A DNA stretch of 64,000 nucleotides from Gammaproteobacteria bacterium. Its GTDB lineage: Bacteria > Pseudomonadota > Gammaproteobacteria > Eutrophobiales > Eutrophobiaceae. The stretch lies in assembly GCA_965250225.1 (NCBI GenBank), contig CBDFNQ010000038.1:118851-182850 (forward strand). Direction: 5' to 3'. Made by a program: the position numbers and the translations under genes. The notes under the pieces are model-generated. The model worked only from the letters and a program-made list of their open reading frames with translations. It searched no databases and was not told the origin of the DNA. The stretch's first letter is position 1; every line of letters starts with the position of its first letter. Positions 3,781 through 58,753 of the stretch are shown here, in pieces.

Positions 3781-5916
3781 TTATGCTGCTTCGGAATTAA
3801 CCGGCAGCGAATGTGGTTTTGATTTCGTATCAGAGAGTATTGGTAATTGTAGAGTGCTAGACATGTCCAAAATCAACGCCACTGTTCCATTGCCTAAGAT
3901 GGTTGCTCCAGAAACACCATCAACGCGTTGATAATTTGTTTCAAGACTTTTAATAACAACTTGTTGCTGCCCAAGTAAATCATCAACAAATATGGCAGCC
4001 TTCTGTCCATCCGCTTCAACAACCACCAATAAACCATCTGTTAATTTATTGTGTTTTGCTTCAACATCAAACACTTCATGTAAACGAACAATTGGGATAT
4101 ATTCATCCCGTAATCGATAGACATCACCTTTGCCTGGTAAACTGTTTATGTTATTTCCCTCTGCCTGTAAGGATTCAACGATAGAAACCAGAGGGATGAT
4201 ATAGGTCTGCTCACCAACCTGGACAAGTTGTCCATCCAGTATGGCTAATGTTAGTGGCAAACGAATACGGAAAGTTGAACCAACGCCTTCTTTGGATTTA
4301 ATCTCTACCACACCACCCAGGTCTTTGATGTTTCTCCGTACAACGTCCATCCCTACACCACGGCCTGATACATCACTGACTTCCTGTGCTGTTGAAAAAG
4401 CAGGCATGAAAATTAATTCATTGATTTTATCATCTGGCAGAATTTCATTTTCACCAACGATCCCTTTTTCACGTGCCTTGGCAAGAATACGTTCCTTATT
4501 CAGACCAGCACCATCATCAATGATCTCGATGACGATGTTGCCGCCCTCATGAAAAGCATTCAAATGTATGACACCCGTTTCTGGTTTTCCGGCCTTGACC
4601 CTGTCTTCCGGCATTTCGATGCCGTGATCCAACGAGTTGCGAACCAGATGAACCATTGGGTCGCCAATTTTTTCCATGACTGTTTTATCCAGCTCGGTTT
4701 GTTCACCAGATATTTTAAGTTCGATCTTTTTATTCAGTGTATTACTCAGATCCCTGACCAGACGTGGAAAACGATTAAACGAAAAGCTGATTGGCAACAT
4801 TCGTATCTGCAATACATTTTCCTGTATTTCACGTGTATTACGTTCAAGTAAATCCAGACCATCCTTTAATCTTTCAATATCAGCCTGGTCGAATGTTTCT
4901 TCTGCACCAAACTGACTCAACATGGATTGAGTGATAACCAGCTCACCTACCATATTGATTAATGTATCTATCTTTTCAATACCCACTCGAATAGATGTGC
5001 TTTCTGAATTCGAACGACGTTCTTTCGCTACTCGTCGGTCAGTACCTGAACGTTGTTCATTTTTTGCAACTTCAGCAACAGGCTGTGTGATTTCTGATGC
5101 TTTGATATCATTTTTTTCATCCAATTGTAAATCACTTTTCTCTTTCATAGATGTAGCATCAGAGACAGCATTTTCATCGAGCATTTTTTTCAATTCCAGA
5201 TCACAGTCACCCTCCACCCAATCAAATATTTCTGTGATTTTCTCTTCTTCTATATTTCCCTTCACCGTAATATCCCAGGATAAAAAAGATGATTCATAAT
5301 CCAAAGTATCAAAGCCAGGTAATTTTGAGTCATCCACAATGACTTCGATCTCACCAAGTCCTGATAATTCTGTGATTAATCTTAAGGGGTCATTTCCAGT
5401 GAGAAACATATTTTCATGTGGGATAAAACGGATAGACCATTGCTTGATTATTTCTTGCCTTTCAGAATCAACATCAGCAACATTTTCATCAATTGTTACA
5501 TCAGAAGCCTCTTCAGCAAGCAGGGTTTCAAGTGCCGTTTGTAATTCATTAATATCTGCCGTATCCAACTCTGCCTCATCACGTGTTGCTGAAAGCATAT
5601 TTCTCAGGCAATCGACAGATTGCAATAACAAATCAACGGATTTCTGACAAACATTGCGCTGACCTGCACGCATCTCATCCAACAAAGTTTCCAGGACATG
5701 AGTAAAACTGGCAATTGCAGTAAAACCAAAAGTGCCACTACCACCTTTGATAGAATGTGCTGCTCTAAAGATCGTGTTTATGGTCTCGACATCTGGCTCT
5801 CCGATATTGAGATCCAGTAAACCAGCTTCCATATCATCCAGGCCTTCAAAACTTTCTTCAAAAAAGACCTCATGAAATTGTGACATATCAACCGACATAG
5901 TTAGTTTTTCCTGCAA
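3781..5916 (-). CDS. cheA: Chemotaxis histidine kinase CheA (start possibly at internal Met, nt 5898)
   Basis: Hpt motif AAHSIKGGSGTFG near N-terminus, HATPase region (GRGVGMDVV), C-terminal CheW-like domain. 711 aa. Confidence 0.92.
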   Translation of the reverse strand: MQEKLTMSVDMSQFHEVFFEESFEGLDDMEAGLLDLNIGEPDVETINTIFRAAHSIKGGSGTFGFTAIASFTHVLETLLDEMRAGQRNVCQKSVDLLLQSVDCLRNMLSATRDEAELDTADINELQTALETLLAEEASDVTIDENVADVDSERQEIIKQWSIRFIPHENMFLTGNDPLRLITELSGLGEIEVIVDDSKLPGFDTLDYESSFLSWDITVKGNIEEEKITEIFDWVEGDCDLELKKMLDENAVSDATSMKEKSDLQLDEKNDIKASEITQPVAEVAKNEQRSGTDRRVAKERRSNSESTSIRVGIEKIDTLINMVGELVITQSMLSQFGAEETFDQADIERLKDGLDLLERNTREIQENVLQIRMLPISFSFNRFPRLVRDLSNTLNKKIELKISGEQTELDKTVMEKIGDPMVHLVRNSLDHGIEMPEDRVKAGKPETGVIHLNAFHEGGNIVIEIIDDGAGLNKERILAKAREKGIVGENEILPDDKINELIFMPAFSTAQEVSDVSGRGVGMDVVRRNIKDLGGVVEIKSKEGVGSTFRIRLPLTLAILDGQLVQVGEQTYIIPLVSIVESLQAEGNNINSLPGKGDVYRLRDEYIPIVRLHEVFDVEAKHNKLTDGLLVVVEADGQKAAIFVDDLLGQQQVVIKSLETNYQRVDGVSGATILGNGTVALILDMSSTLQLPILSDTKSKPHSLPVNSEAA

Positions 5917-19127: not shown

Positions 19128-19181
19128 AATTAAATATTTTTATAATCATTTGTCATTTCACTTTTTACTATTCCCTATTGT

Positions 19182-20501
19182 TCACGCCGCTTTATGATCC
19201 TTATTAGCTGAAACCATGCAGCATTTATGTTTTATGTGATATTCAAATTCATCACGAAACTGTTTAATAAAACTTCTCACTGGCCAGGCCGCAGCATCAC
19301 CCAGTGCACAAATCGTATGGCCTTCGATTTTACTGGCAACGTCATCGAGTTTTTCAAGATCTTCCGCCTGACCCTGACCGTGTTCGATCCGACTGACAAC
19401 ACGATATAACCAACCGGTTCCTTCGCGACAAGGTGTGCATTGACCGCAGGACTCGGAATAATAAAAACGTGATATGCGTTCCAGCACTTTTACCATACAG
19501 GTTGTTTCGTCCATTACGATGACAGCACCAGAACCCAACATGGAACCTGCTTTAACTATTGAATCGTAATCCATATTAGTTTCCATCATGTCTTGCCCAT
19601 GTATAACAGGTACTGACGAACCACCAGGAATAACAGCTTTTAATTGATGCCCATCACGAACACCACCTGCTAGTTCTAAAAGGATTTTAAACGGTGTGCC
19701 CAGAGGCACTTCAAAGTTGCCGGGCTTGTTGACATGGCCACTGACTGAAAAACATTTGGTACCACCACTGTTTACCACACCTTGTTCCAAAAACCATTTT
19801 GAGCCGTTAAGCATAATGCTGGGAACAGAAGCATAGCTCTCAGTATTATTGATCGTAGTGGGCCTGCCGTAGAGGCCAAAATTCGCAGGGAATGGTGGCT
19901 TGAAACGAGGCTGGCCTTTTTTGCCTTCCAATGATTCCAGTAAAGCAGTTTCTTCACCACAGATATAAGCGCCAGCGCCCAGAGTTGCATGTAGATCAAC
20001 TGTGACTCCGGAATCCATAATATCTTTGCCTAACAGACCCTGTTCATAAGCCTCTTCCACTGCTTTGTCGAAGCGCTGAAAAGGCTCATCCATGAATTCA
20101 CCGCGGATATAGTTATAACCGGTTTCTGCACCCATGGCATAACAGGCAATGGCCATCCCTTCTACCAGAGCATGTGGATTAAAACGCAGGATATCTCGAT
20201 CCTTACAGGTTCCTGGTTCACTCTCATCGGAATTACACACCACGTATTTTATTCCCGAAGCCGGAGCCATAAAGCTCCACTTCAATCCAGTAGGAAAACC
20301 AGCACCACCACGACCACGTAAACCGGATTCTTTTAAGTCTTCGATCACTTTTTCTGGAGAAATATTTTCTTTGAGTATTTTCTTCCAAGCATCATAGCCA
20401 CCAACTTTATAGTAAGTATCCAGACTCCATGGTTCTGGATAATTCAGAGTGGCGTAACAAATTGTATTCAACCCTTCCATTTCTTTAGTCCAGTTCCTCA
20501 A
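19182..20501 (-). CDS. nuoF: NADH-quinone oxidoreductase subunit F (51 kDa, FMN/NADH-binding)
   Basis: GRGGAGFPTG FMN site. C-terminal 4Fe-4S motif ESCGQCTPCREG. 439 aa. Confidence 0.92.
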   Translation of the reverse strand: MRNWTKEMEGLNTICYATLNYPEPWSLDTYYKVGGYDAWKKILKENISPEKVIEDLKESGLRGRGGAGFPTGLKWSFMAPASGIKYVVCNSDESEPGTCKDRDILRFNPHALVEGMAIACYAMGAETGYNYIRGEFMDEPFQRFDKAVEEAYEQGLLGKDIMDSGVTVDLHATLGAGAYICGEETALLESLEGKKGQPRFKPPFPANFGLYGRPTTINNTESYASVPSIMLNGSKWFLEQGVVNSGGTKCFSVSGHVNKPGNFEVPLGTPFKILLELAGGVRDGHQLKAVIPGGSSVPVIHGQDMMETNMDYDSIVKAGSMLGSGAVIVMDETTCMVKVLERISRFYYSESCGQCTPCREGTGWLYRVVSRIEHGQGQAEDLEKLDDVASKIEGHTICALGDAAAWPVRSFIKQFRDEFEYHIKHKCCMVSANKDHKAA

Positions 20502-20967
20502 TAATTTTAATTGCTGTTTCTGGCGTTAGATTTTCATAATATTTATGATCCACCATCATCATGGGCGCACCACAACAGGCAGCCAGGCATTCTTCTTCTT
20601 TTTTTAAATAACAACGATCATCCTTGCTAGATTCTCCCAGTTTTATCACTAGATGTTGCTCGAGAGCTGAGATAATTTCATCCGACCCATTCAACATGCA
20701 GGAGATATTGGTGCAAACTGCTATGTTGTGTCTGCCTACCGGCGTTGTTTCCAACATAGAATAAAAAGAGGCTACTTCATAAACCGCAATCTTTGCCATA
20801 TCCAGATATTCAGCAACCGCATCCATTAACTCAGTCGTTAGATATCCCTGATTCTCATGTTGCACTTCACGCAAAGCTGCTAGCACAGCAGATTGTTTTT
20901 GATCAGCCGGATACTTTTTTAACCAGCGATCGATTTCTGTCTTTGCATGTTTGCTTAATTCAGCCAT
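20485..20967 (-). CDS. nuoE: NADH-quinone oxidoreductase subunit E (24 kDa, 2Fe-2S)
   Basis: 160 aa thioredoxin-like ferredoxin, cysteines CTNISC...CLAACCGAP. Overlaps nuoF start. Confidence 0.9.
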   Translation of the reverse strand: MAELSKHAKTEIDRWLKKYPADQKQSAVLAALREVQHENQGYLTTELMDAVAEYLDMAKIAVYEVASFYSMLETTPVGRHNIAVCTNISCMLNGSDEIISALEQHLVIKLGESSKDDRCYLKKEEECLAACCGAPMMMVDHKYYENLTPETAIKIIEELD

Positions 20968-21026
20968 GGAAAGCCCACCCTGGAAAAACAGACCGTTTCC
21001 CCGCGTATGAAAAAATCAACGACTGG

Positions 21027-21046
21027 ATTCCCGCGTGCGCGGGAAT
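21027..21046. repeat. RS3-like small palindromic repeat ATTCCC-N8-GGGAAT
   Basis: ATTCCCGCGTGCGCGGGAAT. Related copies at 33790-33807 (TTCCCGCGAAAGCGGGAA) and 36205-36226 (CATTCCGGCGTAGGCCGGAATC), each followed by (G)GAATGAC/GGATGACGG-like sequence. Confidence 0.6.
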
Positions 21047-21064
21047 GACGGGGGCTGTTCTGAA

Positions 21065-21393
21065 TTTAGAACAAGTATTTTCACCCAAGATGTGGCGCAG
21101 TGCTTTTGAACCCAGAATTTTCATACTCAAAATAAATTTCTTTTTTAGCAAGTATTTTCTTTCAAGATGAGGCGTAAGCTTTTTTAAACGCGCAGTGTAT
21201 GTATGAATACATGAGCAGTTTAAAAAAACGAAACAACGAAATATTGAAAGAAAAGTAAATGTAATAATATTAGAACGAGTATTTTCATCCAAGATGCGGC
21301 GCAGTACTTTTTTAGACGCGGAGCATATAGTTAATATGTGAGCATCTAAAAAAGTACTGCAACAAAATATTGGGTGAAAAGAAGACGTTCTAA
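21065..21393. mobile_element. MITE-like non-coding element in the nuoE-nuoD spacer, bounded by ~22-23-bp terminal inverted repeats
   Basis: Left end TTAGAACAAGTATTTTCACCCA (21065-21086). Right end reverse complement TTAGAACGTCTTCTTTTCACCCA (21371-21393), ending exactly at the nuoD stop. Three direct copies of a ~40-bp unit (21069, 21150, 21270: AGAAC/AGCAAGTATTTTC...CAAGATG.GGCG.A...CTTTT). Two homologous long hairpins (CTTTTTTAAAC...GTTTAAAAAAG around 21195-21245, and GCAGTACTTTTTTAGAC...GTCTAAAAAAGTACTGC 21300-21361). Confidence 0.6.
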
Positions 21394-22647
21394 TCATCTG
21401 TCGACCTCGCCAAAGACAATGTCTTGAGTGCCTATTACTGCCACCACATCCGCCAACATATGTCCTTTTACCATTTCATTCATCGCTGATAAATGGGCAA
21501 AGCCGGCTGCACGTATTTTTACTCGATAAGGTTTATTAGCACCATCTGAAATCAAATAAATACCAAACTCACCTTTGGGATGTTCTACCGCAGAATAAAT
21601 TTCGCCTTCTGGAATACAATAACCTTCTGTGAATAATTTGAAATGATGGATCAAAGATTCCATATCATCTTTCATTTCTTCACGTTTGGGTGGTGATAGT
21701 TTGTGATCATCGATCATGACGGAACCGGGATTATTCCTTAACCAATCGATACATTGTTTGACAATGCGATTGGATTGACGCATCTCTTCTATCCTGACCA
21801 GATATCGATCATAGCAATCGCCGTTCACGCCAACAGGGATGTCAAACTTCAGCTTGTCATAGACTTCATAAGCTTGTTTCCTTCTGAGATCCCATTCAAC
21901 GCCGGAACCGCGCAACATTGGCCCGGTAAAACCCAATGCCTTTGCGCGTTCAGGTGTAACAATACCCACATCAACTGTACGTTGTTTCCAGATACGATTA
22001 TCAGTCAACAGTGTTTCATATTGATCAACACAGGATGGAAATCGATCAGTAAAGTCTTGTATGAAATCCAGCAAACTACCTTGTCGATTTTCATTGAGTC
22101 TTTCGACTTGTTCACCATTATGCCAGGGTGATGGTTTGTATTGTGGCATGAAATCGGGTAAATCACGGTACACTCCACCGGGACGATAATACGTTGCGTG
22201 CATGCGGGTGCCTGACACCGCTTCATAACAATCCATTAAGTCTTCACGTTCTCTGAAACAATATAAAAATACTGTCATGGCACCAATATCAAGTCCATGT
22301 GCCCCTAACCACATGAGATGATTTAATATCCGCGTGATCTCATCAAACATGACGCGTATGTATTGCGCACGAATCGGTGGTGTCACGCCCAGGAGTTTTT
22401 CAATCGCCATTACATAGGCATGCTCATTACACATCATCGACACATAATCGAGTCTGTCCATGTAACCAATGCTCTGATTATAAGGTTTGGATTCAGCGAG
22501 TTTTTCGGTACCTCGGTGCAATAGACCAATATGTGGATCAGCTCGCACGATAGTTTCGCCGTCCATCTCAAGGACCAGACGCAACACACCATGTGCCGCA
22601 GGATGCTGCGGGCCGAAGTTCATGGTCATATTTCTTATTTCAGGCAT
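21394..22647 (-). CDS. nuoD: NADH-quinone oxidoreductase subunit D (49 kDa), unfused
   Basis: 417 aa, starts [24 protein letters not shown] (canonical NuoD N-terminus). Separate ORF from nuoC. Confidence 0.92.
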
Positions 22648-22693
22648 TTATCTTGGTTCGCTGTTCGTTACTTTTTTTACTATTCATTTTTTA

Positions 22694-22728
22694 CTATTCC
22701 CTATTCCCTATTCCCTATTCCCTATTCC
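22694..22728. repeat. Heptanucleotide simple sequence repeat (CTATTCC)x5 spanning the nuoC stop codon and nuoC-nuoD spacer
   Basis: Direct reading of ctattccctattccctattccctattccctattcc. The nuoC stop (TAG at 22715-22717) and last codons (QGNRE) lie inside the repeat. Confidence 0.9.
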
Positions 22729-24497: not shown

Positions 24498-27302
24498 TTA
24501 CATCACCAACTTATGATCTTCAAACATAAAACTCCTGAAATCTTCGGCATCAAGAGGTTTACTGAAATAATAACCCTGCAATACTTCACAACCTAATTGT
24601 GCCAACAACTCATGCTGTTTCATGGTTTCCACACCTTCAGCAACAATTTCAAGACTAAGACTTTTTGCCAAAGAAATAATTGATTTTACTATCGCCATAT
24701 TTTCTATGTTAGCAGGAATATCTCGCACAAAAGATTGGTCTATTTTTAATATATCGACTGGAAATTTTTGTAAATACGACATGGATGAATAACCTGTACC
24801 AAAATCATCAATTGACAATGACACACCCAGGGATTTCAGTTCATGCAAGGTGACTATTGTTTTTTCAATATCATCCATAGCACTACCTTCGGTAATTTCC
24901 AGATCAAGTAATGCAGGATCCAGTCTACTTTCCTCCAGTACTTTTTGGACACAATCATATATATTGTAATTAAGGAATTGTTTAGGCGAGAGATTCACCG
25001 ATATTCTAAATTTTAGAGATGTGACTCGTTGCCATTCCATTGCTTCTTTACAGGCTGTTTTAAAGATCCATTCACTCATAGGTAATATCAATCCTGTTTC
25101 TTCAGCCAACTCAATGAACTCACTGGGAGAAACCATCCCTCTTCGAGGATGTTGCCAACGCAGCAGGGCCTCAGCACCAATTAATTGACCTGTTTGCGAA
25201 CTTATTTTTGGTTGATAGTGAAGTACCAGTTCCTTATTGTTTAATGCGTTCGTCAAATCTCTTTCAAGTTCCAGTTTCTTTAAATTATCGACATCGAGTT
25301 TTTTAGAATAATACTGATAATTTTCCCTACCTTTATTTTTTGCATAATACATAGCGGCATCAGCATTTTTGAGTAACTCATAAAAATCTTCTCCGTGTTT
25401 TGGAAAAATAGAAATGCCAAGACTCGGTGTTACTAAAAGATCATAACTGTCAATTGTGATCTGGCGTTCAAGGTTTGATAAAATATTTTCAGATAACATT
25501 TTGATATATGCAATGATGTCATTAATATCTTTAACATCTGGAACAATAATAAATTCATCACCACCATATCTCGCAATAAAATCATATTCTTGTACATTTT
25601 GTTTGAGAATATTTGCGACCTCTACTAATAATTTATCGCCAACCAAATGCCCGTATGAATCATTAATGTATTTGAAACGATCTAAACCCACTAGAATTAA
25701 AACCATTTTATGATTATCTATTTTTGCTTTTTCAAGATTCAAGGAAAATTCTTTCTGTAGCAAATTTCGATTCGGTAAGCCGGTTAATTTATCGTAATGC
25801 GCCTGTATATAAAGCTTTTGTTCCCAGGTTGAATTTGAGAGTGCAATGGCAACTTTTGAAGCCAACTCTTTGATTTCATTTTTTTCAAATGTTTCAAAAT
25901 CGCTATGATGCCCATTATTGATATACAGAACCCCTATCACACCATCTGTGTTCTTCAATGGAAATAAACGTATATTTTCATTCTCCACACTATTTAGTTG
26001 AGACAAATAATTTCTTTCCGAATTATTCTTTAGTTGTATGCACGTATCACACTCCTCTAATTCTTCATGTTGAGACTGGCTAATCTTGATTGAATATTCT
26101 TCAATGTTATTTTTTTCATCGTTAGAATGAATAAGAAAGTTAGCAGTACCCTGCTCTTCAAAATTGAGAATAATAATTCCGACATTTGACGTTTTCAGAA
26201 ATGAACGAAGCTTATGTATTAAATTAGTAATAATGCTTTTGGAATCCAGTGATGAGAAAATTAATTTATCTATCTCTGTGAACGCATTGATCATTTCAAA
26301 ATGGTCACTAATCTTGCCGCTCATTTCATTAAATGTTTCAGATAAGTCCTGAAACTCATCATGGCTGGTAAGTTTAATTGTGGATCCATAATCACCATTT
26401 TTTATCTTTTCTGCTGATTTTTGTAAAACAGAAAGAGGCACAATGGTACGTCTCACCTGACCTGCGGCTAAAAGCAATATAATTAACAAACTGGCTAATA
26501 AGATTAAGATGAAGTATTTTCTGAAACGTGGCAATGCCTGGTAGGCATCTTCAAGTGGCGTAATGGTATTAACAAAAAGACTATCTGGTGAAAAGGTTGC
26601 GCCCAAAAACAGTTCCCAATAATACGTGGAATGTAATTTATCCTTGTAGACAAACTCTTTGTATTTATTTTCACTTGAGAAAGCAAAAGGGATTTTTTGT
26701 GTTGGGAATCCATCAACATTACAAACTGCTTCGATATTTTTTTCAGCACTGACACAAGCCATGTTATTTGCATAGAGAAACTCATCAACATTTATAACAG
26801 CAACGATAATTACATCATTCAAGTCATGGCTGCTTGCATGATAAAGTAGCGGCGGAGAATCATTTGTATTTTCACTTTCTATTTTGAACAGAAATTTATT
26901 TTGGGAAAGATGATTTTCTTCTTTTTCATTTAACTCATAGTCGAAACTGGCGCCGCCATAAACCTGTTTAAAATATTTTTTGCCTTCTAATAAGTACACA
27001 TCTGAAATATATTTATTGGAGAGTTCATCAGCATAAAATTCCTTCATATTCAGTTGAGATACATCGCTTTGATAAATCATCCTCAACTGCTCAGAGATCA
27101 GGTTTATTCGGTTAAAGATCAATAATGCATAGGATTTTGTATCGAGATAAATTTGTCGTTCCAGATTGGTTTGTATTTGTCTGGATAATTCCTGATATGA
27201 CACGAGTGCAATGCCCATAATTGGAATAAGACCTGCTAAAAGAAAAAAAACAAATATACGCTGTGCTACTTTACTTTTCAGGATCGTATTATTGAATTTC
27301 AC
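24498..27302 (-). CDS. Membrane sensor protein with GGDEF (diguanylate cyclase) and EAL (phosphodiesterase) domains
   Basis: 934 aa. N-terminal TM (IFVFFLLAGLIPIMGIALV), large periplasmic region, second TM (YFILILLASLLIILLLAAG), HAMP-like, GGDEF (RYGGDEFIIV), EAL (EALLRWQHP...DDFGTGYSS). Confidence 0.88.
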   Translation of the reverse strand: MKFNNTILKSKVAQRIFVFFLLAGLIPIMGIALVSYQELSRQIQTNLERQIYLDTKSYALLIFNRINLISEQLRMIYQSDVSQLNMKEFYADELSNKYISDVYLLEGKKYFKQVYGGASFDYELNEKEENHLSQNKFLFKIESENTNDSPPLLYHASSHDLNDVIIVAVINVDEFLYANNMACVSAEKNIEAVCNVDGFPTQKIPFAFSSENKYKEFVYKDKLHSTYYWELFLGATFSPDSLFVNTITPLEDAYQALPRFRKYFILILLASLLIILLLAAGQVRRTIVPLSVLQKSAEKIKNGDYGSTIKLTSHDEFQDLSETFNEMSGKISDHFEMINAFTEIDKLIFSSLDSKSIITNLIHKLRSFLKTSNVGIIILNFEEQGTANFLIHSNDEKNNIEEYSIKISQSQHEELEECDTCIQLKNNSERNYLSQLNSVENENIRLFPLKNTDGVIGVLYINNGHHSDFETFEKNEIKELASKVAIALSNSTWEQKLYIQAHYDKLTGLPNRNLLQKEFSLNLEKAKIDNHKMVLILVGLDRFKYINDSYGHLVGDKLLVEVANILKQNVQEYDFIARYGGDEFIIVPDVKDINDIIAYIKMLSENILSNLERQITIDSYDLLVTPSLGISIFPKHGEDFYELLKNADAAMYYAKNKGRENYQYYSKKLDVDNLKKLELERDLTNALNNKELVLHYQPKISSQTGQLIGAEALLRWQHPRRGMVSPSEFIELAEETGLILPMSEWIFKTACKEAMEWQRVTSLKFRISVNLSPKQFLNYNIYDCVQKVLEESRLDPALLDLEITEGSAMDDIEKTIVTLHELKSLGVSLSIDDFGTGYSSMSYLQKFPVDILKIDQSFVRDIPANIENMAIVKSIISLAKSLSLEIVAEGVETMKQHELLAQLGCEVLQGYYFSKPLDAEDFRSFMFEDHKLVM

Positions 27303-33699: not shown

Positions 33700-33940
33700 G
33701 CTTCATATTTTTCAACAGAGCAATGCCAATTCTCCGTCATGCTGGCGAAGGCCAGTATCCACCTCTGAGGCATGTCAGAGTATGAGTCGTTCCCGCGAAA
33801 GCGGGAATGACCGCCATGGACGGCGGAAATGCAATAGGATTGTCTGGAACAATCCATGCCCAGTACAAAGGAGTTGTCACCAAAGGTGACGCAATAATAA
33901 CTGGATACCGGCTCGGAGGCCGGTATGACGGAGTAAGGGA
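33700..33940. repeat. Cluster of five consecutive perfect hairpins / REP-like palindromes in the tpiA-nth intergenic region
   Basis: TCCCGCGAAAGCGGGA (33791-33806), CCGCCATGGACGGCGG (33810-33825), GGATTGTCTGGAACAATCC (33837-33855), GTCACCAAAGGTGAC (33876-33890), TACCGGCTCGGAGGCCGGTA (33905-33926). No credible ORF (small overlapping ORFs in three frames). Confidence 0.6.
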
Positions 33941-36189: not shown

Positions 36190-36320
36190 TCATACTACTA
36201 TTGTCATTCCGGCGTAGGCCGGAATCCATGTAAATCTGGATCCCGGCCTCGGCTTTGGCTTCCTGCGTCGCTCTATCACCTACGTCCTATAGGTGTTCGC
36301 CGGGATGACGGTGTTTTTGA
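36190..36320. repeat. REP-like palindromic repeat region (RS3-like ATTCC-N10-GGAAT plus GC-rich hairpins)
   Basis: CATTCCGGCGTAGGCCGGAATC at 36205-36226 and downstream CGCCGGGATGACGG, similar to the units at 21027 and 33790. GC content locally much higher than surroundings. Confidence 0.5.
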
Positions 36321-42405: not shown

Positions 42406-43977
42406 TTGAAACTAACCTTGGGAGTGTTGGATTCTGTAAAATCCTTTTACGACGCTACACCCCATATCAGTCGTTCGGAATTTCAGACATTTGTGAACCC
42501 ACTCCTGAGAAAATATGCTAACGCACAAGCGTTGGAGTGGATTCCAAAAATACTGAATAGTGAACGACAGAAATATGAAACACAAGCGCAGGTAGATGGG
42601 TTAGAAGGCTTCACTATCAAAGAAAAAAATCAAGGCGCGATGGTCACAGCAAATATTCGCGATGAATATTTCCCGGTATATTTTGTCGAGCCGCTGCAAA
42701 CCAATAAAGCTGCGGTAGGATTTGATCTTGCGTCTAATCCAAAACGCCTGGAAGCACTTAATACATCGAGAGATAGTGGGGAAAAAGTAGCAACCGCACG
42801 CATTACCCTGGTACAAGAAAACGAAAAACAAGCCGGGTTATTAATCTTTAATCCTGTCTATGACAATGCAACGTTCTATAAGAGCATTGAGGAAAGGCAA
42901 AAATATATAGAAGGTTTTGTGCTCATGGTTTTACGTGTTGGCGATATGATTAGCCAGGCACTGGGAGAGAACGAAAGTAACTTTGATATACAGGTTGAAG
43001 ATATAATCTCACCCGGAAATACAGAAAATATTATTAATTCCGTCCAAGGCCAAGCTGTACCTATAGATGCTTTCTCATATACAGATGTACTGGACTTGGC
43101 AGGCCGCCAGTGGAAAATTACGCTAACACCGCGTATGGATGCCTATAAGAACCTCATATCTAGATTACCCTGGATTATTCTTGGCAGTGGTCTTGTGTTT
43201 ACTGCGTTACTCACTCTTTTATTTATGCAACTTATTCGTCGCCGCCAAATAGTTGAAGATCTTGTAGAACAAAGAACATCCGAACTTAAACATACAATGG
43301 AAGATTTACAACTGACTAATGATGAATTAGAAAAGTTTGCCTATGTTGCCTCACACGACTTGAAGTCACCGCTACGTGCTATTGATAATCTCAGTCTCTG
43401 GTTAGATGAAGACCTTGGTGATGCATTGACAGGTAAGAACAAGGAGTACATGGAAAAATTGCGTGGTCGCGTATTTCGCATGGATCGGTTATTGGATGAC
43501 TTACTTGATTATTCACGGACAGGTCAAACAGAACAAAAAAGTAATCCTATTGAGACTGATTTATTAATTAAAGAAATCACCGAGTTGTTAAACATACAGG
43601 AAGGTTTTCTGATCAACATCGATGACAGCCTAAAACAATGTACTGTCTCAAAATCACCACTCGATCTGATCTTTCGTAACCTGATTGACAATGCGATTAA
43701 ACACCATGATAAAACAGAGGGGACGATCACGGTCTCGATGAAACCGAATGGTCAGTATTATGAATTTACGGTTGATGATGATGGCCCCGGTATCGATCCG
43801 AAATTTCACGAGAAGGTTTTCGAAATGTTTCAAACATTAAAACCCCGAGACGAAGTCGAAGGCAGCGGTATGGGTATGGCCATGGTGAAAAAAATTCTGT
43901 TCAAGCATGGCGGAAGAATTATCCTGGATTCTGATATCGGTCAGGGTACCCGTTTTATTTTCACCTGGCCTAAATAA
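42406..43977 (+). CDS. CHASE-domain sensor histidine kinase. N-terminal TM segment lies in frameshifted upstream ORF 42285..42521.
   Basis: Periplasmic CHASE-like domain (…SRSEFQTFVNPLLRKYANAQALEWIPKI…GFDLASNPKRLEALNTSRDSGEKVATARITLVQ…), TM (LPWIILGSGLVFTALLTLLFMQLI), HisKA (FAYVASHDLKSPLRAI), HATPase_c (GSGMGMAMVKKI...GQGTRF). The upstream frame (…RLFFIAMAGVVISIITCLVF…VKVQFRSIEQAVETNL) joins smoothly if one nucleotide is added or removed near 42415. Confidence 0.8.
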   Translation: MKLTLGVLDSVKSFYDATPHISRSEFQTFVNPLLRKYANAQALEWIPKILNSERQKYETQAQVDGLEGFTIKEKNQGAMVTANIRDEYFPVYFVEPLQTNKAAVGFDLASNPKRLEALNTSRDSGEKVATARITLVQENEKQAGLLIFNPVYDNATFYKSIEERQKYIEGFVLMVLRVGDMISQALGENESNFDIQVEDIISPGNTENIINSVQGQAVPIDAFSYTDVLDLAGRQWKITLTPRMDAYKNLISRLPWIILGSGLVFTALLTLLFMQLIRRRQIVEDLVEQRTSELKHTMEDLQLTNDELEKFAYVASHDLKSPLRAIDNLSLWLDEDLGDALTGKNKEYMEKLRGRVFRMDRLLDDLLDYSRTGQTEQKSNPIETDLLIKEITELLNIQEGFLINIDDSLKQCTVSKSPLDLIFRNLIDNAIKHHDKTEGTITVSMKPNGQYYEFTVDDDGPGIDPKFHEKVFEMFQTLKPRDEVEGSGMGMAMVKKILFKHGGRIILDSDIGQGTRFIFTWPK

Positions 43978-44477: not shown

Positions 44478-46211
44478 TCAGTTTATTTGTACTTGTTTTA
44501 ACTCACTAAGACCATTGAACATGAAATTTACATACTCATCTGGTGGCAAAGGTCGCGAATAATAATAACCTTGTATATAGTTACAATCCATCGCACGAAG
44601 AGTCGTTACAAGTTCTAATGTTTCAACACCTTCAACAATGACTTTCATACCCAGTTGTTCACTGAGTACCGAAATTGCCTTTACGATTGCCCTGTCATTT
44701 ATATCGGAGAGAAGATGATCAACAAACGATTTATCAATCTTGAGCGTCGACAAAGGATAATCGCGCAAGTATGAGAAGGAAGAGTAACCAGTGCCGAAAT
44801 CATCAATGCTGATGCCAATGCCATTTTCATTTAATAATTTAAAATGTTCAATAACCAGTGTTTCGTAATGTAAAATAACACTCTCGGTAATTTCAATATC
44901 GAGCCAACTGCTTTCCACAGCTATTTCATCAAATAGTTCAAGCAAACGAACAACGAAGGTCTTCTGTCGAAAATGCAGTGAGGAAATATTGACGGAAATT
45001 CTTGAGTTCGGAAATTGTTGTCGCATATTCGACTTCCAATAATGAGCAACTTCTTTCAAGACATATTCTCCAAGCTGGACAATCAACCCGGACTGTTCCA
45101 TCTCAGGTATAAACGTACCCGGTAACATGATTCCTTTTTCAGGATGCTGCCAACGCACCAGGGCTTCACAGCTATGGATTGTTTCAGTTTTGGCATCTAC
45201 CACTGGCTGGTAATAAACAATAAATTCATTATTGGCAAACGCACGTCGAAGTTCATTACCCATATTTGGGCTTTGCGATTTCTTTTTTGTCTCCGAATCT
45301 GCAAACTGATACTGATTACGACCCTGTTCCTTGGCGAGATACATCGCCGTGTCAGCGACGGTAATCAGCTCATCACAAGACTGACCATCATCAGGGAATA
45401 GTGAAATACCAATACTACAACCTATGTACAACTCCTCTTTATGAACATAAAACGCTTCTTGCAAAGAGGTATTGATTTTTTCAGCGAGCTTACTAATACC
45501 ATTGTTATCGACAATATCTCTCAATACACAGATAAATTCATCACCACCAATTCGGGCTACGATATCCGACTCTCTTAGTAGACTCGTAAGTCGTTTAGCC
45601 ACCTCAATCAAGACAGCATCCCCAATATCATGGCCCATCGAATCATTGATAATTTTAAATCGATCCAGATCGATAAATAATACTGCTATTTTTTCATCAG
45701 TTCGTTTCGCATGCTGGAGTATATTTTCAAATTGATATTTCAATGATGCCCGGTTTGTCAGACCTGTTAATGAATCGTGCATGGCGAGTTCGTGTTCACG
45801 TTCTTTCAAGACATCCAATTCGACTAGGAGGCGCTTTCGCTCTATAGCATGATGAATAGCACGTTCAACCGTATCGTCTCTAGCCTCACCCTTGATAAGG
45901 TAGTCCTGGGCACCTGCTTTAACGGACTCAATACCCTGCTGAATATCGTTATTACCAGTCATAACGATGACGGGAGTGTTCCTGGCATGTTTAATCGCCT
46001 CAGATACGATGGTAGAACTGGTGCCATCGGGTAGTCCCATGTCCAGAAAGATCACATCATAATCTTCCTCTTGCATGGCTTTTTTACCATCGGCTAACAA
46101 TGAAACATGAGTAACAGAATAGGAGGCTAATTTGCCCCGGTTGAGATATTCCTGCAATAAATACGCATCGCCAGGGTTGTCTTCTATTAAAAGCACTCTA
46201 ATTTCAATCAT
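44478..46211 (-). CDS. Response regulator with GGDEF and EAL output domains (REC-GGDEF-EAL)
   Basis: REC (IRVLLIEDNPGDAYLL...VIFLDMGLPDG), GGDEF (RIGGDEFICVL), EAL (EALVRWQHP...DDFGTGYSSFSYL). Confidence 0.88.
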   Translation of the reverse strand: MIEIRVLLIEDNPGDAYLLQEYLNRGKLASYSVTHVSLLADGKKAMQEEDYDVIFLDMGLPDGTSSTIVSEAIKHARNTPVIVMTGNNDIQQGIESVKAGAQDYLIKGEARDDTVERAIHHAIERKRLLVELDVLKEREHELAMHDSLTGLTNRASLKYQFENILQHAKRTDEKIAVLFIDLDRFKIINDSMGHDIGDAVLIEVAKRLTSLLRESDIVARIGGDEFICVLRDIVDNNGISKLAEKINTSLQEAFYVHKEELYIGCSIGISLFPDDGQSCDELITVADTAMYLAKEQGRNQYQFADSETKKKSQSPNMGNELRRAFANNEFIVYYQPVVDAKTETIHSCEALVRWQHPEKGIMLPGTFIPEMEQSGLIVQLGEYVLKEVAHYWKSNMRQQFPNSRISVNISSLHFRQKTFVVRLLELFDEIAVESSWLDIEITESVILHYETLVIEHFKLLNENGIGISIDDFGTGYSSFSYLRDYPLSTLKIDKSFVDHLLSDINDRAIVKAISVLSEQLGMKVIVEGVETLELVTTLRAMDCNYIQGYYYSRPLPPDEYVNFMFNGLSELKQVQIN

Positions 46212-49854: not shown

Positions 49855-51195
49855 CTAGGAAAAACCCTTGTTTAATAATTGTATCGCATCCTGAATAGGC
49901 ATAGGTTTTGAAAAATAATATCCCTGGCCAAGCTCACATCTTTGCTTTCTTAACCATTCCATTTCTTCCCGCTTTTCAATACCTTCAGCTACAACAAGCA
50001 TATCCAGTTGTTTAGCCAAACCAATAATAGCGGAAACTATACGTTTCCCATTATCATTATCAAACATGTCATTAATAAAACTTCGATCGATTTTCAATAT
50101 ATCTAAAGGAAATCTGTTTAAGTAATTCAAACTTGAATAACCTGTACCAAAATCATCTATCGCAACAAGAACTCCAATTGTACGTAATCGACTTAATGCC
50201 TCCATTGCCACATGAGGGTTATTTAACAGAGTGTTTTCTGTTATTTCCAATTTTATACATTTTGGATCGATTGAAGAGCGCAAAATAATATTAATGAGTG
50301 ATTCTACGTTATCTTTATCATCCAGCTGGCGTGGTGATACATTGATGCTGATAAAAAGTGGATTTTTCAGATTTTTATCTTGAGCTTTCTTATCAAATAA
50401 TTGATATGCTAATAAAGAATGCTCTAATATCCATTCACCTAAAGGGATAATCAACCCGGACTCTTCAAGAAGCGGAATAAAGTCTTGAGGATTACGCATC
50501 TCAGGAATATCCTTAGGACCACGGACTAATGCTTCATAACCATTAACGATACCATTTGATAAATTCACTATGGGTTGATAATATAATTCAAATGATTGGT
50601 TCTCGACCGCAGCCGAAAGTTTCGACATAGAATTAATATAATTAACTGCCTCGTTTCGAGTCTGTTGAAAAACGATATCCCTTTTGCTTTCAAATTCCAG
50701 TTCCTCCACCTCTATATCATCAGAAAAATCTGTGTGCATTATTCTCAAACGACGAAATGCTGATTGTAATAATAATTGAGTTAAAGGATCTTCTCCTTTC
50801 ATCGCATCCTGAATCTGCCTGCGACTTATCGGGTGAACAGTTATTTCATGTATAGCAATTGCTGTTGCCGTACGAAGCTTTCCATCCATCACAGAGATTT
50901 CCCCAAAAATTTCTCCTGGGCCAAGAATTGCAATCACTTTCTTTTCATTATTAATGTCGCGTGATATTTCAACATAACCGTTATGTATAAGATATGCTTC
51001 GTTACCACGATCATTTTCTTCAAAGATTCTGGTGCCTGCTGAATAAATAACCTGGCCAACGCTGGGTTCGATTAGTTTTGCCAATTCCATTTGGGATATT
51101 TTGTGAATTGCCTGTGATCCAACAACTGGCATTTTAGCTAACCTTTGAATGTACTTGCTGCTGATCAAACCATTTAGTAACCTGGTTACGTCCAT
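49855..51195 (-). CDS. Cyclic-nucleotide-binding domain + EAL domain protein (cNMP-regulated c-di-GMP phosphodiesterase)
   Basis: cNMP-binding signature (GEIFGEISVMDGKLRTATAIA), EAL domain (YEALVRGP…ELYYQPIV…DDFGTGYSSLNYL…EGIEKREE). The ORF-track start overlaps the upstream GGDEF gene by 62 nt. An internal Met (MPVVGSQ, nt ~51135) abuts it instead. Confidence 0.85.
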   Translation of the reverse strand: MDVTRLLNGLISSKYIQRLAKMPVVGSQAIHKISQMELAKLIEPSVGQVIYSAGTRIFEENDRGNEAYLIHNGYVEISRDINNEKKVIAILGPGEIFGEISVMDGKLRTATAIAIHEITVHPISRRQIQDAMKGEDPLTQLLLQSAFRRLRIMHTDFSDDIEVEELEFESKRDIVFQQTRNEAVNYINSMSKLSAAVENQSFELYYQPIVNLSNGIVNGYEALVRGPKDIPEMRNPQDFIPLLEESGLIIPLGEWILEHSLLAYQLFDKKAQDKNLKNPLFISINVSPRQLDDKDNVESLINIILRSSIDPKCIKLEITENTLLNNPHVAMEALSRLRTIGVLVAIDDFGTGYSSLNYLNRFPLDILKIDRSFINDMFDNDNGKRIVSAIIGLAKQLDMLVVAEGIEKREEMEWLRKQRCELGQGYYFSKPMPIQDAIQLLNKGFS

Positions 51196-52868: not shown

Positions 52869-55800
52869 CTAAGTATCTAGTATTTCTCCAACTTTTTTCT
52901 CAATCTGTTTTTCTTTCTTTTCTGATTGATCATCATCTTTGCTATCTGGATCACCATCTTCAGAATCATCATCTTTAGAAGCAGTAAGAACAGCTAAAGG
53001 GTCAATATGTCTCCATGTTGGTAATGATGAAAGTAATACCGAAAACAACCACTCAACCCGTAACAACCACGATAATGAACCAACAGACAGTGTTAAACCA
53101 ATTGTCTTGCCAATGTTTTCCGCAATTTCGATTTTCTTCTGCCCGGCATCATCAGATACATCCATCTCTTCTCTAAAATTCGAAAGTGCCTCTTCAAAAG
53201 TACGTTGAGTGTCTGACGTGTTTTCTAACAACCCACTGGACTCAAGTATATCTCTACCAGCATCTCGTATCTTTGCTAATTCTATAAATATGTGTTCTGT
53301 TACTGTTCTATCATTTTGTAAATTATCACGATCGAAACTGTTCGAATTTAGAACAATCTGTTCAACTCCTTTATCTTGATTCAAGATATTCTGAGAATCC
53401 AAAATTGTTTCTGGCATTTTTGTATTTGAATTTTCTATGTTCAAAGAATTAATAACTATCTTGAGGGCGGCACTGGTTTCTTCATTAATTGTTAATTCAG
53501 CACTTAATAATTCACTTTCTTGATTCTCATCAGTTATGATTTCCAGTGTCATAGCAGACTCCGGCTCATCAACAATGATTTCACTGACACTGACTGCTAC
53601 TGGTCCTACACCGATGGCACCATCAAACACTGTCAGCGAATAATTTGGCGCGGCCCCACCGAAATGCACAAACTGAATATCACCATTATTAATATCTTCC
53701 TGAGTAAAGGTACTTATCAAAACACCAGGATTACTCACAGCTTCAAACTGTCCACCAGTAATTCCCGAAATAGTAAAGGTCAAATCGGCATCTAAATTAT
53801 CGACATCCGATGTAAGGATATTGGTTGTACTTAATAAGGTGGTTTGTCCAGAGATATAAGCTAGCTGATTTGTGTTAAAAACCGGTGCATCGTTGACTGG
53901 ATTAACGGTGATACTCACTACTTGTGTGGTGGTGCCTCCAAGGTCGTCGGTGACAGTGACGGTAAAGTTATCGCTACCGAACCAGTTTGGATCCGTCGGA
54001 GTAAACGTCCACGCACCCGTGGCGGGGTTGATAGCAGCCGTGCCATTGGTAGCCGGAGTGGTGACAGTAAAATACGTATTATCCGTTAAACCCTCAGCGT
54101 CCGTAGCCGTCATCGTGCCGCCCACAGTATCGCCTTCGTTGCCGCTGTAACTGATGTCCCCGGTAATGACCGCGCTATCGTCGACCCCACTAACCGTCAC
54201 CGTCGTGTCGTAGTTGGTACTGGTGCCTCCATCGCCATCGGTGAGCACGTAGCGCACCGTACGATTACCTGTGGTCGGGTTGTCGGTGTCGGTGTTCTCA
54301 TACGTGATGTTTTGCGTGAGGGCGCTGACCGCCGTCGCATCGGCACTAGCGTTTAACGCGATCACCAAGTCCGTGCCACCGGTGCCGCCGGTGAATGTCC
54401 CAATCGTCACGCCTTGATACGTGACGTTACTTCCACTCACACCAACCTGCCCCGCCGCCGTGCCTTGGTTCCGGATGGCCAGCACATCCTCCGCACTGTC
54501 ACTGCCCGCTTGGAAGGAGACCGTAAGCGTGCCTGTGTCAAAGTCACTGCTGTCCACATCACTGACGACGGCATCCACCCCTTGCTCGATGACCACCGCC
54601 CCGTCGCCTTCGGTGTAGGCCAGGGCATCGCCGCCTAAGTTGGTGATAATCGGCAGGTCGTTTACCGTAGTCACGGTCAAAGTGACGGTCACGGTGTTAG
54701 AATCAATCGTTCCGTCGTTGGCTTTGTAGGTAAACGAGTCGACGCCGTTGAAGTCGGGGTTGGGGGTATAGGTAAACGTGCCATTGGCGTTGAGGACCAG
54801 CGTGCCGTTGCTGACGTCTGTTACTAGCACCGCGGTCAGCGGATCGGCATCGGCGTCAGTGTCGTTGAATAGTATGCCGGGATCGTTGTTCTCAAACCAG
54901 GCCACCGTGTCGTCGCCGCCTGACGCCGCCAACACATCTAGATCACCATCTCCATCCACATCCGCTATCGCGACAGAGATCGCCCCATCGGCCGTATTGG
55001 TGAGCACCTGCGCGGCGCCAAAGGTCCCCAACCCGTCGGTGTTCTCAAACCACGCCACCGTGTCGCCAAACACTGACGCCGCCACCACGTCCAGATCTCC
55101 ATCCCCATCCACATCCGCTGCCATGACAGAAGACGGCCCATTGGTCGTATTATTGATTACCTGCTCAGAGCCAAACGTCCCCAGCCCGTCGGTGTTCTCA
55201 TACCACACCACCGTGTCGCTCACGCGTATGGCTGCCACCACGTCCAGATCCCCATCTCCGTCCACATCCGCTGTCGTGACAGATCTCGCCCCATTGGCCG
55301 AATTGTCGATCAACTGCTCGGCACCAAACGTGCCCAGCCCGTCGGTGTTCTCATACCACGCCACCGTGTCGCCGATAAGTGACGCCACCAGGACGTCCTG
55401 ATCGCCATCCCCATCCACATCCGCTGCGGTAACATCGACTGCCCCATCGGCCGTATTGGTGAGCACCTGTTCGGTGCCAAACGTCCCCAGCCCGTCGGTG
55501 TTCTCATACCACGCCACCGTGTCGTCGTTTTTTGATGCCGCCAGCACGTCCAGATCCCCATCTCCGTCCACATCTGTTGCCACAATCGAGTAAGCCCCAT
55601 CGGCCGTATTCGTGATCACCTGTTCGGCACCAAACGTCCCCAGCCCGTCGGTGTTCTCATACCACGCCACCGTGTCGTCGTTTGTTGACGCCGCCAACAC
55701 ATCCAGATCCCCGTCTCCATCCACATCCGCTGCGGTCACAGCGAATGCCCCATCGGCCAGATTGGTGATCACCTGCTCGGCGCCAAACGTCCCCAGCCCG

Positions 55801-58634: not shown

Positions 58635-58753
58635 ATGACATGCTGGCGATATATTTAGTCGGATCTGGCTGACCAACCTTATATATCGTCAGAAAATATA
58701 AAAACTTGAATGTTCTCGAAAGAGATGAAGCCCTGTTCCCTATTCTCTTTTAA

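Follow-up and report, generated by a model that had tools for sequence, protein, structure and literature searches.

In Yersinia, enterobacterial repetitive intergenic consensus (ERIC) elements change the stability of the mRNAs that carry them (PMC10969869). Rickettsia palindromic elements (RPEs) have one stop-free frame that is read by ribosomes, and its openness is kept since a stop codon harms expression of the host gene (PMC10969869). Correia hairpins are substrates of RNase III; small open reading frames (ORFs) occur in copies of QMITE1, and the 3' ends of genes are overlapped by QMITE2 (PMC5896051, PMC10969869). Here we describe the spacer between nuoD and nuoE in the complex I operon of a gammaproteobacterium, located in a 64,000-nt stretch of contig CBDFNQ010000038.1 (positions 118,851 to 182,850), called the window below. 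An earlier note on this DNA had seen in the spacer a single element of about 330 bp resembling a miniature inverted-repeat transposable element (MITE). Judged from its sequence, the spacer is an array of imperfect-palindrome units of about 125 nt rather than one 330-bp element, and an ORF bridges it from nuoD to nuoE. With moderate confidence we regard the array as an old, locus-bound hairpin insertion of the MITE, ERIC, or RPE kind that has been kept translatable so that coupling from nuoD to nuoE survives. In the literature we found nothing on palindromes between nuoD and nuoE or on MITEs combined with translational coupling.

The locus comprises the following features, given as window coordinates.

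21394–22647, minus strand: nuoD, 417 codons plus a TGA stop codon (21394–21396); orthologues match Pfam Complex1_49kDa.
20485–20967, minus strand: nuoE, 160 codons.
20968–21393, minus strand: nuoD-nuoE spacer, 426 bp, highly structured.
21270–21393, minus strand: unit A, an intact 124-nt imperfect palindrome with termini TTAGAACG / CGTTCTAA, adjoining the nuoD stop; covariance model score 122.8 bits.
21143–21269, minus strand: unit B, an imperfect palindrome of 127 nt that belongs to a second subtype and is degenerate at its 5' end; covariance model score 107.3 bits.
21066–21142, minus strand: unit fragments, with an A-type 3' arm at 21066–21107 and a second short end fragment at 21105–21123.
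21027–21046, strand not assigned: GC-rich palindrome ATTCCCGCGTGCGCGGGAAT, similar to repetitive extragenic palindromic (REP) and RS3 sequences; the region from about 21012 to 21083 matches multi-copy repeats of other bacteria.
20960–21397, minus strand: bridging ORF, 145 codons; its ATG (21395–21397) overlaps the nuoD stop (ATGA) and its TGA lies at 20960–20962.

Read on the operon strand from nuoD to nuoE, unit A is followed by unit B, the 3'-arm fragments, the GC-rich palindrome, and a short run. All features of the earlier description were recovered, among them the 426-bp spacer at 20968–21393, the three direct repeats of about 40 bp, and the two homologous long A/T-rich hairpins, one in each of units A and B. 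The direct repeats, of about 42 nt, lie at 21066, 21143, and 21270 and are 100, 71, and 90% identical to the first; their core motif occurs three times against 0.07 expected by chance. The arms of one hairpin (21301–21319 and 21342–21360) are 19 nt long and 95% complementary, and its homologous counterpart lies within 21143–21269. The outer inverted repeats TTAGAAC..TTTTCACCCAA (21066–21088 versus 21371–21393, with an internal non-complementary stretch) are real as well, but they do not bound a single element: they are the arms of two different units, namely the fragment arm at 21066–21088 and the far arm of unit A. The fragment at 21066–21107 is 90% identical to the corresponding arm of unit A. 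As had been proposed for the right inverted repeat, the last unit reaches the nuoD stop codon; it ends at 21393, one base short of this codon.

The terminal inverted repeats of unit A (TTAGAACG / CGTTCTAA) form a terminal helix of six pairs with compensatory changes in four of them. A TA dinucleotide stands on both sides of unit A and is compatible with a TA target duplication. Saturation of the silent sites, which extends even to L001, the relative closest by NuoD, left no empty site close enough to delimit the unit. At 120–127 nt, the units are under the MITE size limit of about 500 bp, and their sole ORF has no Pfam match.

Among the described systems, ERIC sequences (also intergenic repeat units, IRU) share with the present units the form of imperfect palindromes of about 124–127 nt, the terminal inverted repeats, the location in transcribed intergenic regions of operons, and a high conservation between species. 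The AT-rich unit is nevertheless without sequence similarity to ERIC, as blastn in distant mode gave no match in 5,426 complete E. coli genomes, nor was the unit found in plasmids or phages. Moreover, ERIC sequences occur in tens to hundreds of dispersed copies per genome, whereas here we know of one locus, which carries a conserved bridging ORF. The likeness to RPEs lies in a palindromic unit of about 100–150 nt with one frame free of stops, which in the present case is predicted to be translated; RPEs, however, are multi-copy and sit in frame inside many unrelated protein genes, while here a separate mini-ORF occupies a single known locus. Correia repeat enclosed elements (CREE) of Neisseria and QMITE1 and QMITE2 of Coxiella are likewise small non-autonomous palindromes with terminal inverted repeats, located in or near transcription units. 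They differ in being dispersed in 45 to >120 copies per genome and in length (190–400 bp for QMITE, about 100–200 bp for Correia), whereas here no dispersal was seen and no sequence relationship was found. Identity with QMITE, to which the GC content and the RS3-like palindrome had pointed by way of Coxiella, was rejected, as QMITE1 and QMITE2 are 400 and 190 bp long and multi-copy, and the host is not Coxiella; both are kept as analogues.

A further likeness is to stop-start (ATGA) translational coupling, since the start of the mini-ORF overlaps the nuoD stop (ATGA/TTGA) and its stop overlaps or abuts the nuoE start (ATGA or ATGGCTGA). Classical coupling joins two functional genes directly, whereas here a relay ORF without a conserved peptide would lead across 150–430 nt of hairpin DNA. 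The array may best be described as a palindromic insertion, of probable MITE-like origin, that now serves as a fixed relay between two coupled cistrons, with translation of the relay predicted by the comparisons given below. We do not class it as a MITE, because the defining dispersed copies are missing in all DNA searched.

Junctions were gathered from contigs of relatives (L001–L006 and L045–L050) through relatives of NuoE and through matches to the core motif; the sample comprised ten long spacers (window, L002–L006, L045, L047, L049, and L050), some of them mutually related. Seven other divergent gammaproteobacterial contigs (L002, L003, L006, L045, L047, L049, and L050) carry homologous AT-rich units that adjoin the nuoD stop and share one orientation. 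In L005 a GC-rich insert interrupts the unit of this junction, in L004 another kind of hairpin is present there, and L001 has no element. Every intact unit starts at or overlaps the nuoD stop codon, and every unit abuts (A/C)G(A/T)TGA. The nuoD-nuoE spacer of L001, whose NuoD is 92% identical, measures only 10 bp, and its neighboring junctions are equally tight; the long spacer of the window is therefore an insertion, or it was lost in L001. The comparison of junctions in relatives, put forward in the earlier note, thus recovered the same unit at the same place and in the same orientation, and as no second locus was found in the DNA searched, this speaks against the MITE-like mobile repeat proposed there.

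As for the hosts, the named members of the 90%-identity clusters of L002 NuoF and L001 NuoD are metagenome-assembled genomes (MAGs) labelled Thiotrichaceae, Beggiatoa, or Gammaproteobacteria, and the 90%-identity protein cluster of L005 NuoD has one member labelled Woeseia. L002 (CAYMPA010000024.1) is titled uncultured Enterobacteriaceae bacterium, yet it has a GC content of about 42% and its NuoF clusters with proteins labelled Thiotrichaceae or Gammaproteobacteria; the Enterobacteriaceae label of this MAG is probably wrong.

Copies elsewhere were searched for with a core pattern of 24 nt with 20 specified bases, common to all three window copies and required to match exactly. Scanning one genome per GTDB species and the JGI metagenomes gave one place each, both of them nuoD-nuoE junctions (L002 and L006), and the core motif is single in the L002 genome, a GTDB representative. 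No other AT-rich unit was found in the 64-kb window, either by blastn with short words or by a covariance model (R1) built from eight units and run with filters off. In about 64 kb of relatives' DNA this model matched only the junction units. The count of copies by blastn came out differently for the two components of the spacer, the palindrome being repeated in the window and the AT-rich unit not. We rejected as AT-rich units the matches to a looser, 16-base core in 38 viral contigs; none of them fit the covariance model, and they are hence attributed to chance.

Two of the long spacers, L004:574-788 and L005:2627-2809, share a GC-rich block, GCTAT[AG]AATACATCCCTGTACGCTC ... GACGGTC, which lies within the AT-rich unit in L005 and within a long hairpin (GATGAGTTGGAAGTTGATGA / TCATCAACTTCCAACTCATC) in L004. 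ACGGTCTGTTT..CCAGGGT also recurs close to nuoE in the window. Together these suggest that a second conserved or mobile element shares the junction.

The degree of conservation was judged against the host genes. At four-fold degenerate sites nuoD is 30–43% identical in all genome pairs and thus saturated, so unconstrained intergenic DNA of common descent should be unrecognizable. The units are 83–90% identical between hosts whose NuoF proteins are only 72–76% identical. The pairwise values were as follows.

Unit A versus L002:2312-2435: 90% nucleotide identity; host NuoF 76% amino-acid identity.
Unit A versus L050:539-662: 83% nucleotide identity; host NuoF 73% amino-acid identity.
Unit B versus L006:1317-1441: 90% nucleotide identity; host NuoD 84% and NuoE 73% amino-acid identity.
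Unit A versus unit B: 76% nucleotide identity; same genome.
Unit A versus the L003 and L045 units: 63–64% nucleotide identity; host NuoF 86% (L003) and 88% (L045) amino-acid identity.

A recent tandem duplication in the source genome was rejected as the origin of A and B, each being 90% identical to units of other genomes against 76% to each other. A recombination tract from a relative was rejected too, as the similarity of nuoD beside the unit does not exceed the average of the gene. Behind the first unit, a remnant of a second one is present in L002, and possibly also in L049 and L050, which fits an old tandem array with differential loss.

The ATG of the bridging ORF is set across the last two bases of the nuoD arginine codon and the T of the stop codon (AGATGA), with GAGG 7 nt upstream; the C-terminal codons of nuoD, GGC GAG GTC GAC AGA TGA, contain both this ATG and the Shine-Dalgarno-like GAGG (21405–21408). 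Out of frame with both nuoD and nuoE, the ORF crosses units A and B, the fragments, and the REP-like palindrome, and it closes with a TGA 5 nt inside nuoE (ATGGCTGA). Relatives show this arrangement too. A start at -1 of the nuoD stop, either ATG or TTG, was found in 9/9 unit-bearing junctions, the ORF spans the whole unit in 8/8 junctions with an intact unit, and in 7 of the 10 long spacers (window, L002, L003, L005, L006, L047, and L050) it ends between -4 and +10 of the nuoE start. The bridging frame contains no stop codon and the other five frames contain 2–12. When the spacers were shuffled with dinucleotides preserved, the frame was open in 1 of 5000 sequences for the window, 47 of 5000 for L002, 306 of 5000 for L003, 277 of 5000 for L005, and 173 of 5000 for L006. 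To allow for shared descent, alignment columns with a stop in any unit were counted; the reading frame has 0 of them, and the other two frames have 9 and 7. The window and L006 use one and the same frame for unit B, although in the window B follows the 124-nt unit A; a 2-nt length difference at the start of B restores the phase. From these comparisons, the open frame is under selection.

Other nuo spacers of these loci (54–185 nt) served as a control; a short bridging ORF was present in 3/8, while in the remaining ones every frame is interrupted by stops. On these grounds we rejected the idea that nuo spacers generally carry bridging ORFs. The three short ORFs (L003:4787-4887 between nuoF and nuoG, L047:2496-2613 between nuoE and nuoF, and L047:3913-3990 between nuoF and nuoG) begin 4–10 nt past the upstream stop and end at most 4 nt from the next start. 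The proportion is not significant alone and gives a hint that relay ORFs might be a wider habit of these operons.

The peptide itself behaves differently. Between pairs of units the ratio of non-synonymous to synonymous divergence (pN/pS) is 0.6–1.4, and substitutions are spread evenly over the three codon positions. The bridging peptides have 47–145 codons and unrelated tails; in character they are hydrophobic, basic, and rich in Cys, and MI.TSSF recurs at their N-terminus. The bridging ORF had no Pfam match in a scan that covered 9 window ORFs (among them chemotaxis, c-di-GMP signaling, and adhesin-like proteins), and a search with the translated units among 5.8 billion clusters returned no homologous called protein beyond the source ORF itself. 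Protein-coding selection on the peptide was rejected, with pN/pS at about 1, and these values indicate that its amino-acid sequence is not under selection. The earlier dismissal of the 145-aa ORF as repeat-derived was not supported, as its open frame is the most clearly conserved feature of the locus.

The second constraint concerns pairing. Compared with shuffled sequence, either strand of the spacer folds far more stably (z = -7.4 for the sense and -6.0 for the antisense strand). The consensus of the eight-unit alignment has 42 pairs in four helices, with 91.9% of cells paired. Compensatory changes, with both sides altered, affect 20/42 pairs; 0/500 shuffles reach this number, and sliding the partners by 1–3 columns gives at most 6. 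Some non-complementary stretches are conserved as well, such as AGTA opposite GAAGAC close to the unit ends. AAAATACTTG is almost invariant across all unit types, and AGTATTTTC..CAAGATG.GGCG is invariant in five copies. The covariation indicates that the hairpin is under selection.

No Rfam family reached its gathering score in the spacer, where only sub-threshold matches to miRNA-precursor-like hairpins appeared; in the Rfam scan of the window, only a tRNA outside the spacer passed the threshold. On the operon strand of the spacer, consensus matching predicted neither a sigma-70-like promoter nor an intrinsic terminator, which disfavors the internal promoter or terminator considered in the earlier note. 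One promoter-like site was found on the plus strand (21244–21271). In every unit, folding is slightly better for the antisense strand, and G.U outnumber A.C oppositions within the predicted stems; a symmetric arm-to-arm comparison gave 9 G.T against 13 A.C mismatches, i.e., no strand bias.

The GC-rich palindrome ATTCCCGCGTGCGCGGGAAT is a literal fit to the pattern ATTCCC-N8-GGGAAT, so that the earlier label of an RS3-like palindrome beside the element is fair, and related copies lie elsewhere in the window (33789–33808 and 36203–36228). By blastn, the palindrome region matched 20 places in each chromosome record of Neisseria gonorrhoeae, 26 in a replicon of Photobacterium, and 4 in a Microcystis phage, with single matches in Azospirillum and Cupriavidus records. 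By these copies it is a separate, dispersed REP-type repeat that landed in the spacer. Likeness to REP sequences with their bacterial interspersed mosaic elements (BIME) and to the dRS3-type palindromes of Neisseria is limited to 21027–21046, in both pattern and repeated copies; unlike in those systems, the palindrome here is only a passenger, unrelated to the AT-rich units, and the host is not Neisseria. Intergenic GC-rich REP-like palindromes related to ATTCCCGCGTGCGCGGGAAT (GTCATGCTGGCGAAGGCCAGTATCC, GTTCCCGCGAAAGCGGGAATGAC, GTCATTCCGGCGTAGGCCGGAATCC, and CGCCGGGATGACGG) also occur at window positions 33736–33811 and 36203–36312. When translated, REP-like palindromes yield a peptide of the 'VIPAHAGIQ' type, which is also present in the 145-codon ORF.

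Taken together, the units probably have a MITE/ERIC/RPE-like origin. The array would have lodged after the nuoD stop within a clade of uncultured gammaproteobacteria, and in the source genome it would have grown to two units plus fragments and gained the REP/RS3-like palindrome. In the mechanism we favor, ribosomes ending nuoD would re-initiate on the bridging ORF, melt the hairpins in passing, and terminate at or near the nuoE start. Such relay translation would preserve coupling and guard against polarity or cleavage in a long folded gap, and copies gaining a stop codon would be selected against. Conservation of the hairpin, and of the element beyond the level of silent sites, suggests a further role of the untranslated folded RNA; most likely this RNA would act as a stability or processing element, protect the 3' end of the nuoA-D segment, or switch between nuoA-D and nuoE-N in a ribosome-dependent way. 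A more specific version of the last option is doubtful. It would treat the locus as a 'translated hairpin' switch, in which the relay ORF is conserved only for its openness and for the hairpin of about 42 bp: with ribosomes flowing from nuoD the hairpin would be melted and nuoE-N expressed, and otherwise the transcript would be cut, stabilized, or silenced, setting the ratio of NuoA-D to NuoE-N. Such a switch would be conserved across a deep, sulfur-oxidizer-like gammaproteobacterial clade and might have spread by site-specific replacement.

Several observations weigh against the insertion kept translatable for coupling. Unit similarity does not track host similarity, since the hosts closest by NuoF, L045 and L003, carry a unit only 63–64% identical to A; to account for this incongruence, constraint must have been very uneven, old paralogous units must have been lost differentially, or units must have been replaced laterally. 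L001, the closest relative by NuoD, is without any element, which makes the element dispensable. The ORF ends 48 nt (L045) and 32 nt (L049) before nuoE, and L004 has no ORF starting at the nuoD stop, its ORF covering the distal spacer only; coupling to nuoE in the strict stop-start form is thus not found everywhere. The search of the source genome spans the 64-kb window, and the collection scans needed the exact 20-base core. Translation of the bridging ORF, moreover, is deduced from the comparison of sequences.

The selected pairing could also mean that the spacer acts in cis as a conserved element, at the RNA or DNA level, whose ORF is incidental; it might be a hairpin for processing or stability that separates nuoA-D from nuoE-N, a site bound by a protein, or a gene for an antisense RNA. 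The strong covariation, the conserved asymmetric internal loops, and a nucleotide identity above that of the flanking coding DNA would all fit, as would the better folding of the antisense strand in every unit together with the plus-strand promoter-like site at 21244–21271. This explanation nevertheless leaves the stop-free frame that starts exactly at the nuoD stop in 9/9 junctions unaccounted for, no Rfam family and no sense-strand terminator or promoter was predicted, L001 does without the element, and the strand asymmetry vanishes in the symmetric arm comparison; we consider it unlikely. If instead the ORF were the primary feature, it would be a true small protein gene, for example for an accessory or membrane peptide of complex I, that is palindromic by chance. 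The nuo/nqo clusters of Paracoccus and Rhodobacter contain extra unidentified reading frames, and the coupled start in 9 junctions, the GAGG 7 nt upstream in the window, and the hydrophobic, Cys-rich, and basic peptides with their MI.TSSF N-terminus agree with such a gene. Yet a pN/pS near 1, with substitutions even over codon positions, lengths of 47–145 codons with unrelated tails, the lack of a Pfam family or protein homologue in the searches above, and the absence from L001 make a small protein gene highly improbable.

Two further explanations give the mobility of the units a larger part. In one, a member of a dispersed and possibly active MITE family landed between the genes by chance, and any effect on nuo, as an RNase III site, attenuator, or promoter, is incidental. 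Terminal inverted repeats, small size, the lack of a transposase, and the TA flanks of unit A as a possible target duplication are all MITE-like; fragments and nested repeats have piled up at the locus (among them the REP-like palindrome of the window and the GC-rich inserts of L005 and L045), and the empty 10-bp junction of the close relative L001 and the incongruence of unit and host similarity agree with this origin. A chance landing is nonetheless distinctly unlikely, because no copy was found at another locus in the DNA searched, the core is single in the L002 genome, and all instances share one position and one orientation, with the open frame and the hairpin kept across deep divergence. 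In the other, a site-specific palindromic element moves horizontally, targeting the nuoD stop or homing via its conserved flanks, and successive insertions built the array. This would explain why A-type units occur in three host groups and B-type units in the window and L006, incongruent with the host tree, why decay rises away from nuoD (A intact, B with a degenerate end, then fragments), and why every unit abuts (A/C)G(A/T)TGA. It is very unlikely, however, given that the flanking coding DNA shows no conversion tract, no mobilizing enzyme was identified, and the second-unit remnants (L002, possibly L049 and L050) fit an ancestral tandem array with differential loss.

Palindromic repeats in operons are usually dismissed as selfish DNA or as mRNA stability elements. 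Here, one unit is bound to one junction despite silent-site saturation, and the sequence reveals two independent constraints, on pairing and on the openness of a frame, while the peptide drifts freely. The locus therefore offers a natural test case for the ways in which bacteria put up with, or make use of, a long structured insertion between genes coupled in translation, and for the question whether selection can act on a relay ORF for its translation alone. It also matters for annotation, as such ORFs are called hypothetical proteins (source record, P0122) or are missed, and a mobile element would wrongly be annotated in place of the spacer.

Other nuo junctions contain simple heptamer repeats and a shared A-rich motif of the GTGAA type. 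The nuoC-nuoD spacer of the window (22648–22714) has (GGGAATA)x5 followed by GTAAAAAATGAATAGTAAAAAAAG directly upstream of nuoD, and the nuoF-nuoG spacer (19128–19181) has ATAGGGAATAGTAAAAAGTGAAATG upstream of nuoG. Among the relatives, L002:4308-4492 contains AAAAGTGAAATG and a (GAGATAC)n run, and repeated GTGAAG/GTGAAA blocks occur at L003:1500-1574, L003:4787-4887, and L047:1894-2000. Intergenic heptamer direct repeats near start codons have been described in marine Beggiatoaceae and in cyanobacteria (PMC4679880), in agreement with the probable host clade.

Elsewhere in the window, a 1935-codon adhesin-like ORF (52869–58676, minus strand) contains FG-GAP, cadherin-like, Big_9, and DUF4347 domains. 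Its region has a GC content of 55–59%, compared with about 41% elsewhere, and carries tandem repeats of 153 nt and 147 nt in at least 6 copies each, especially at 54883–55947 and 56552–57586. Three GGDEF/EAL proteins are encoded within 27 kb, with the domain sets HAMP-GGDEF-EAL (24498–27302), receiver-GGDEF-EAL (44478–46211), and cNMP-binding-EAL (49855–51195); they share diverged DNA repeats and are thus likely paralogues. A CHASE histidine kinase (42406–43977) and CheA (3781–5916) are encoded near these genes.

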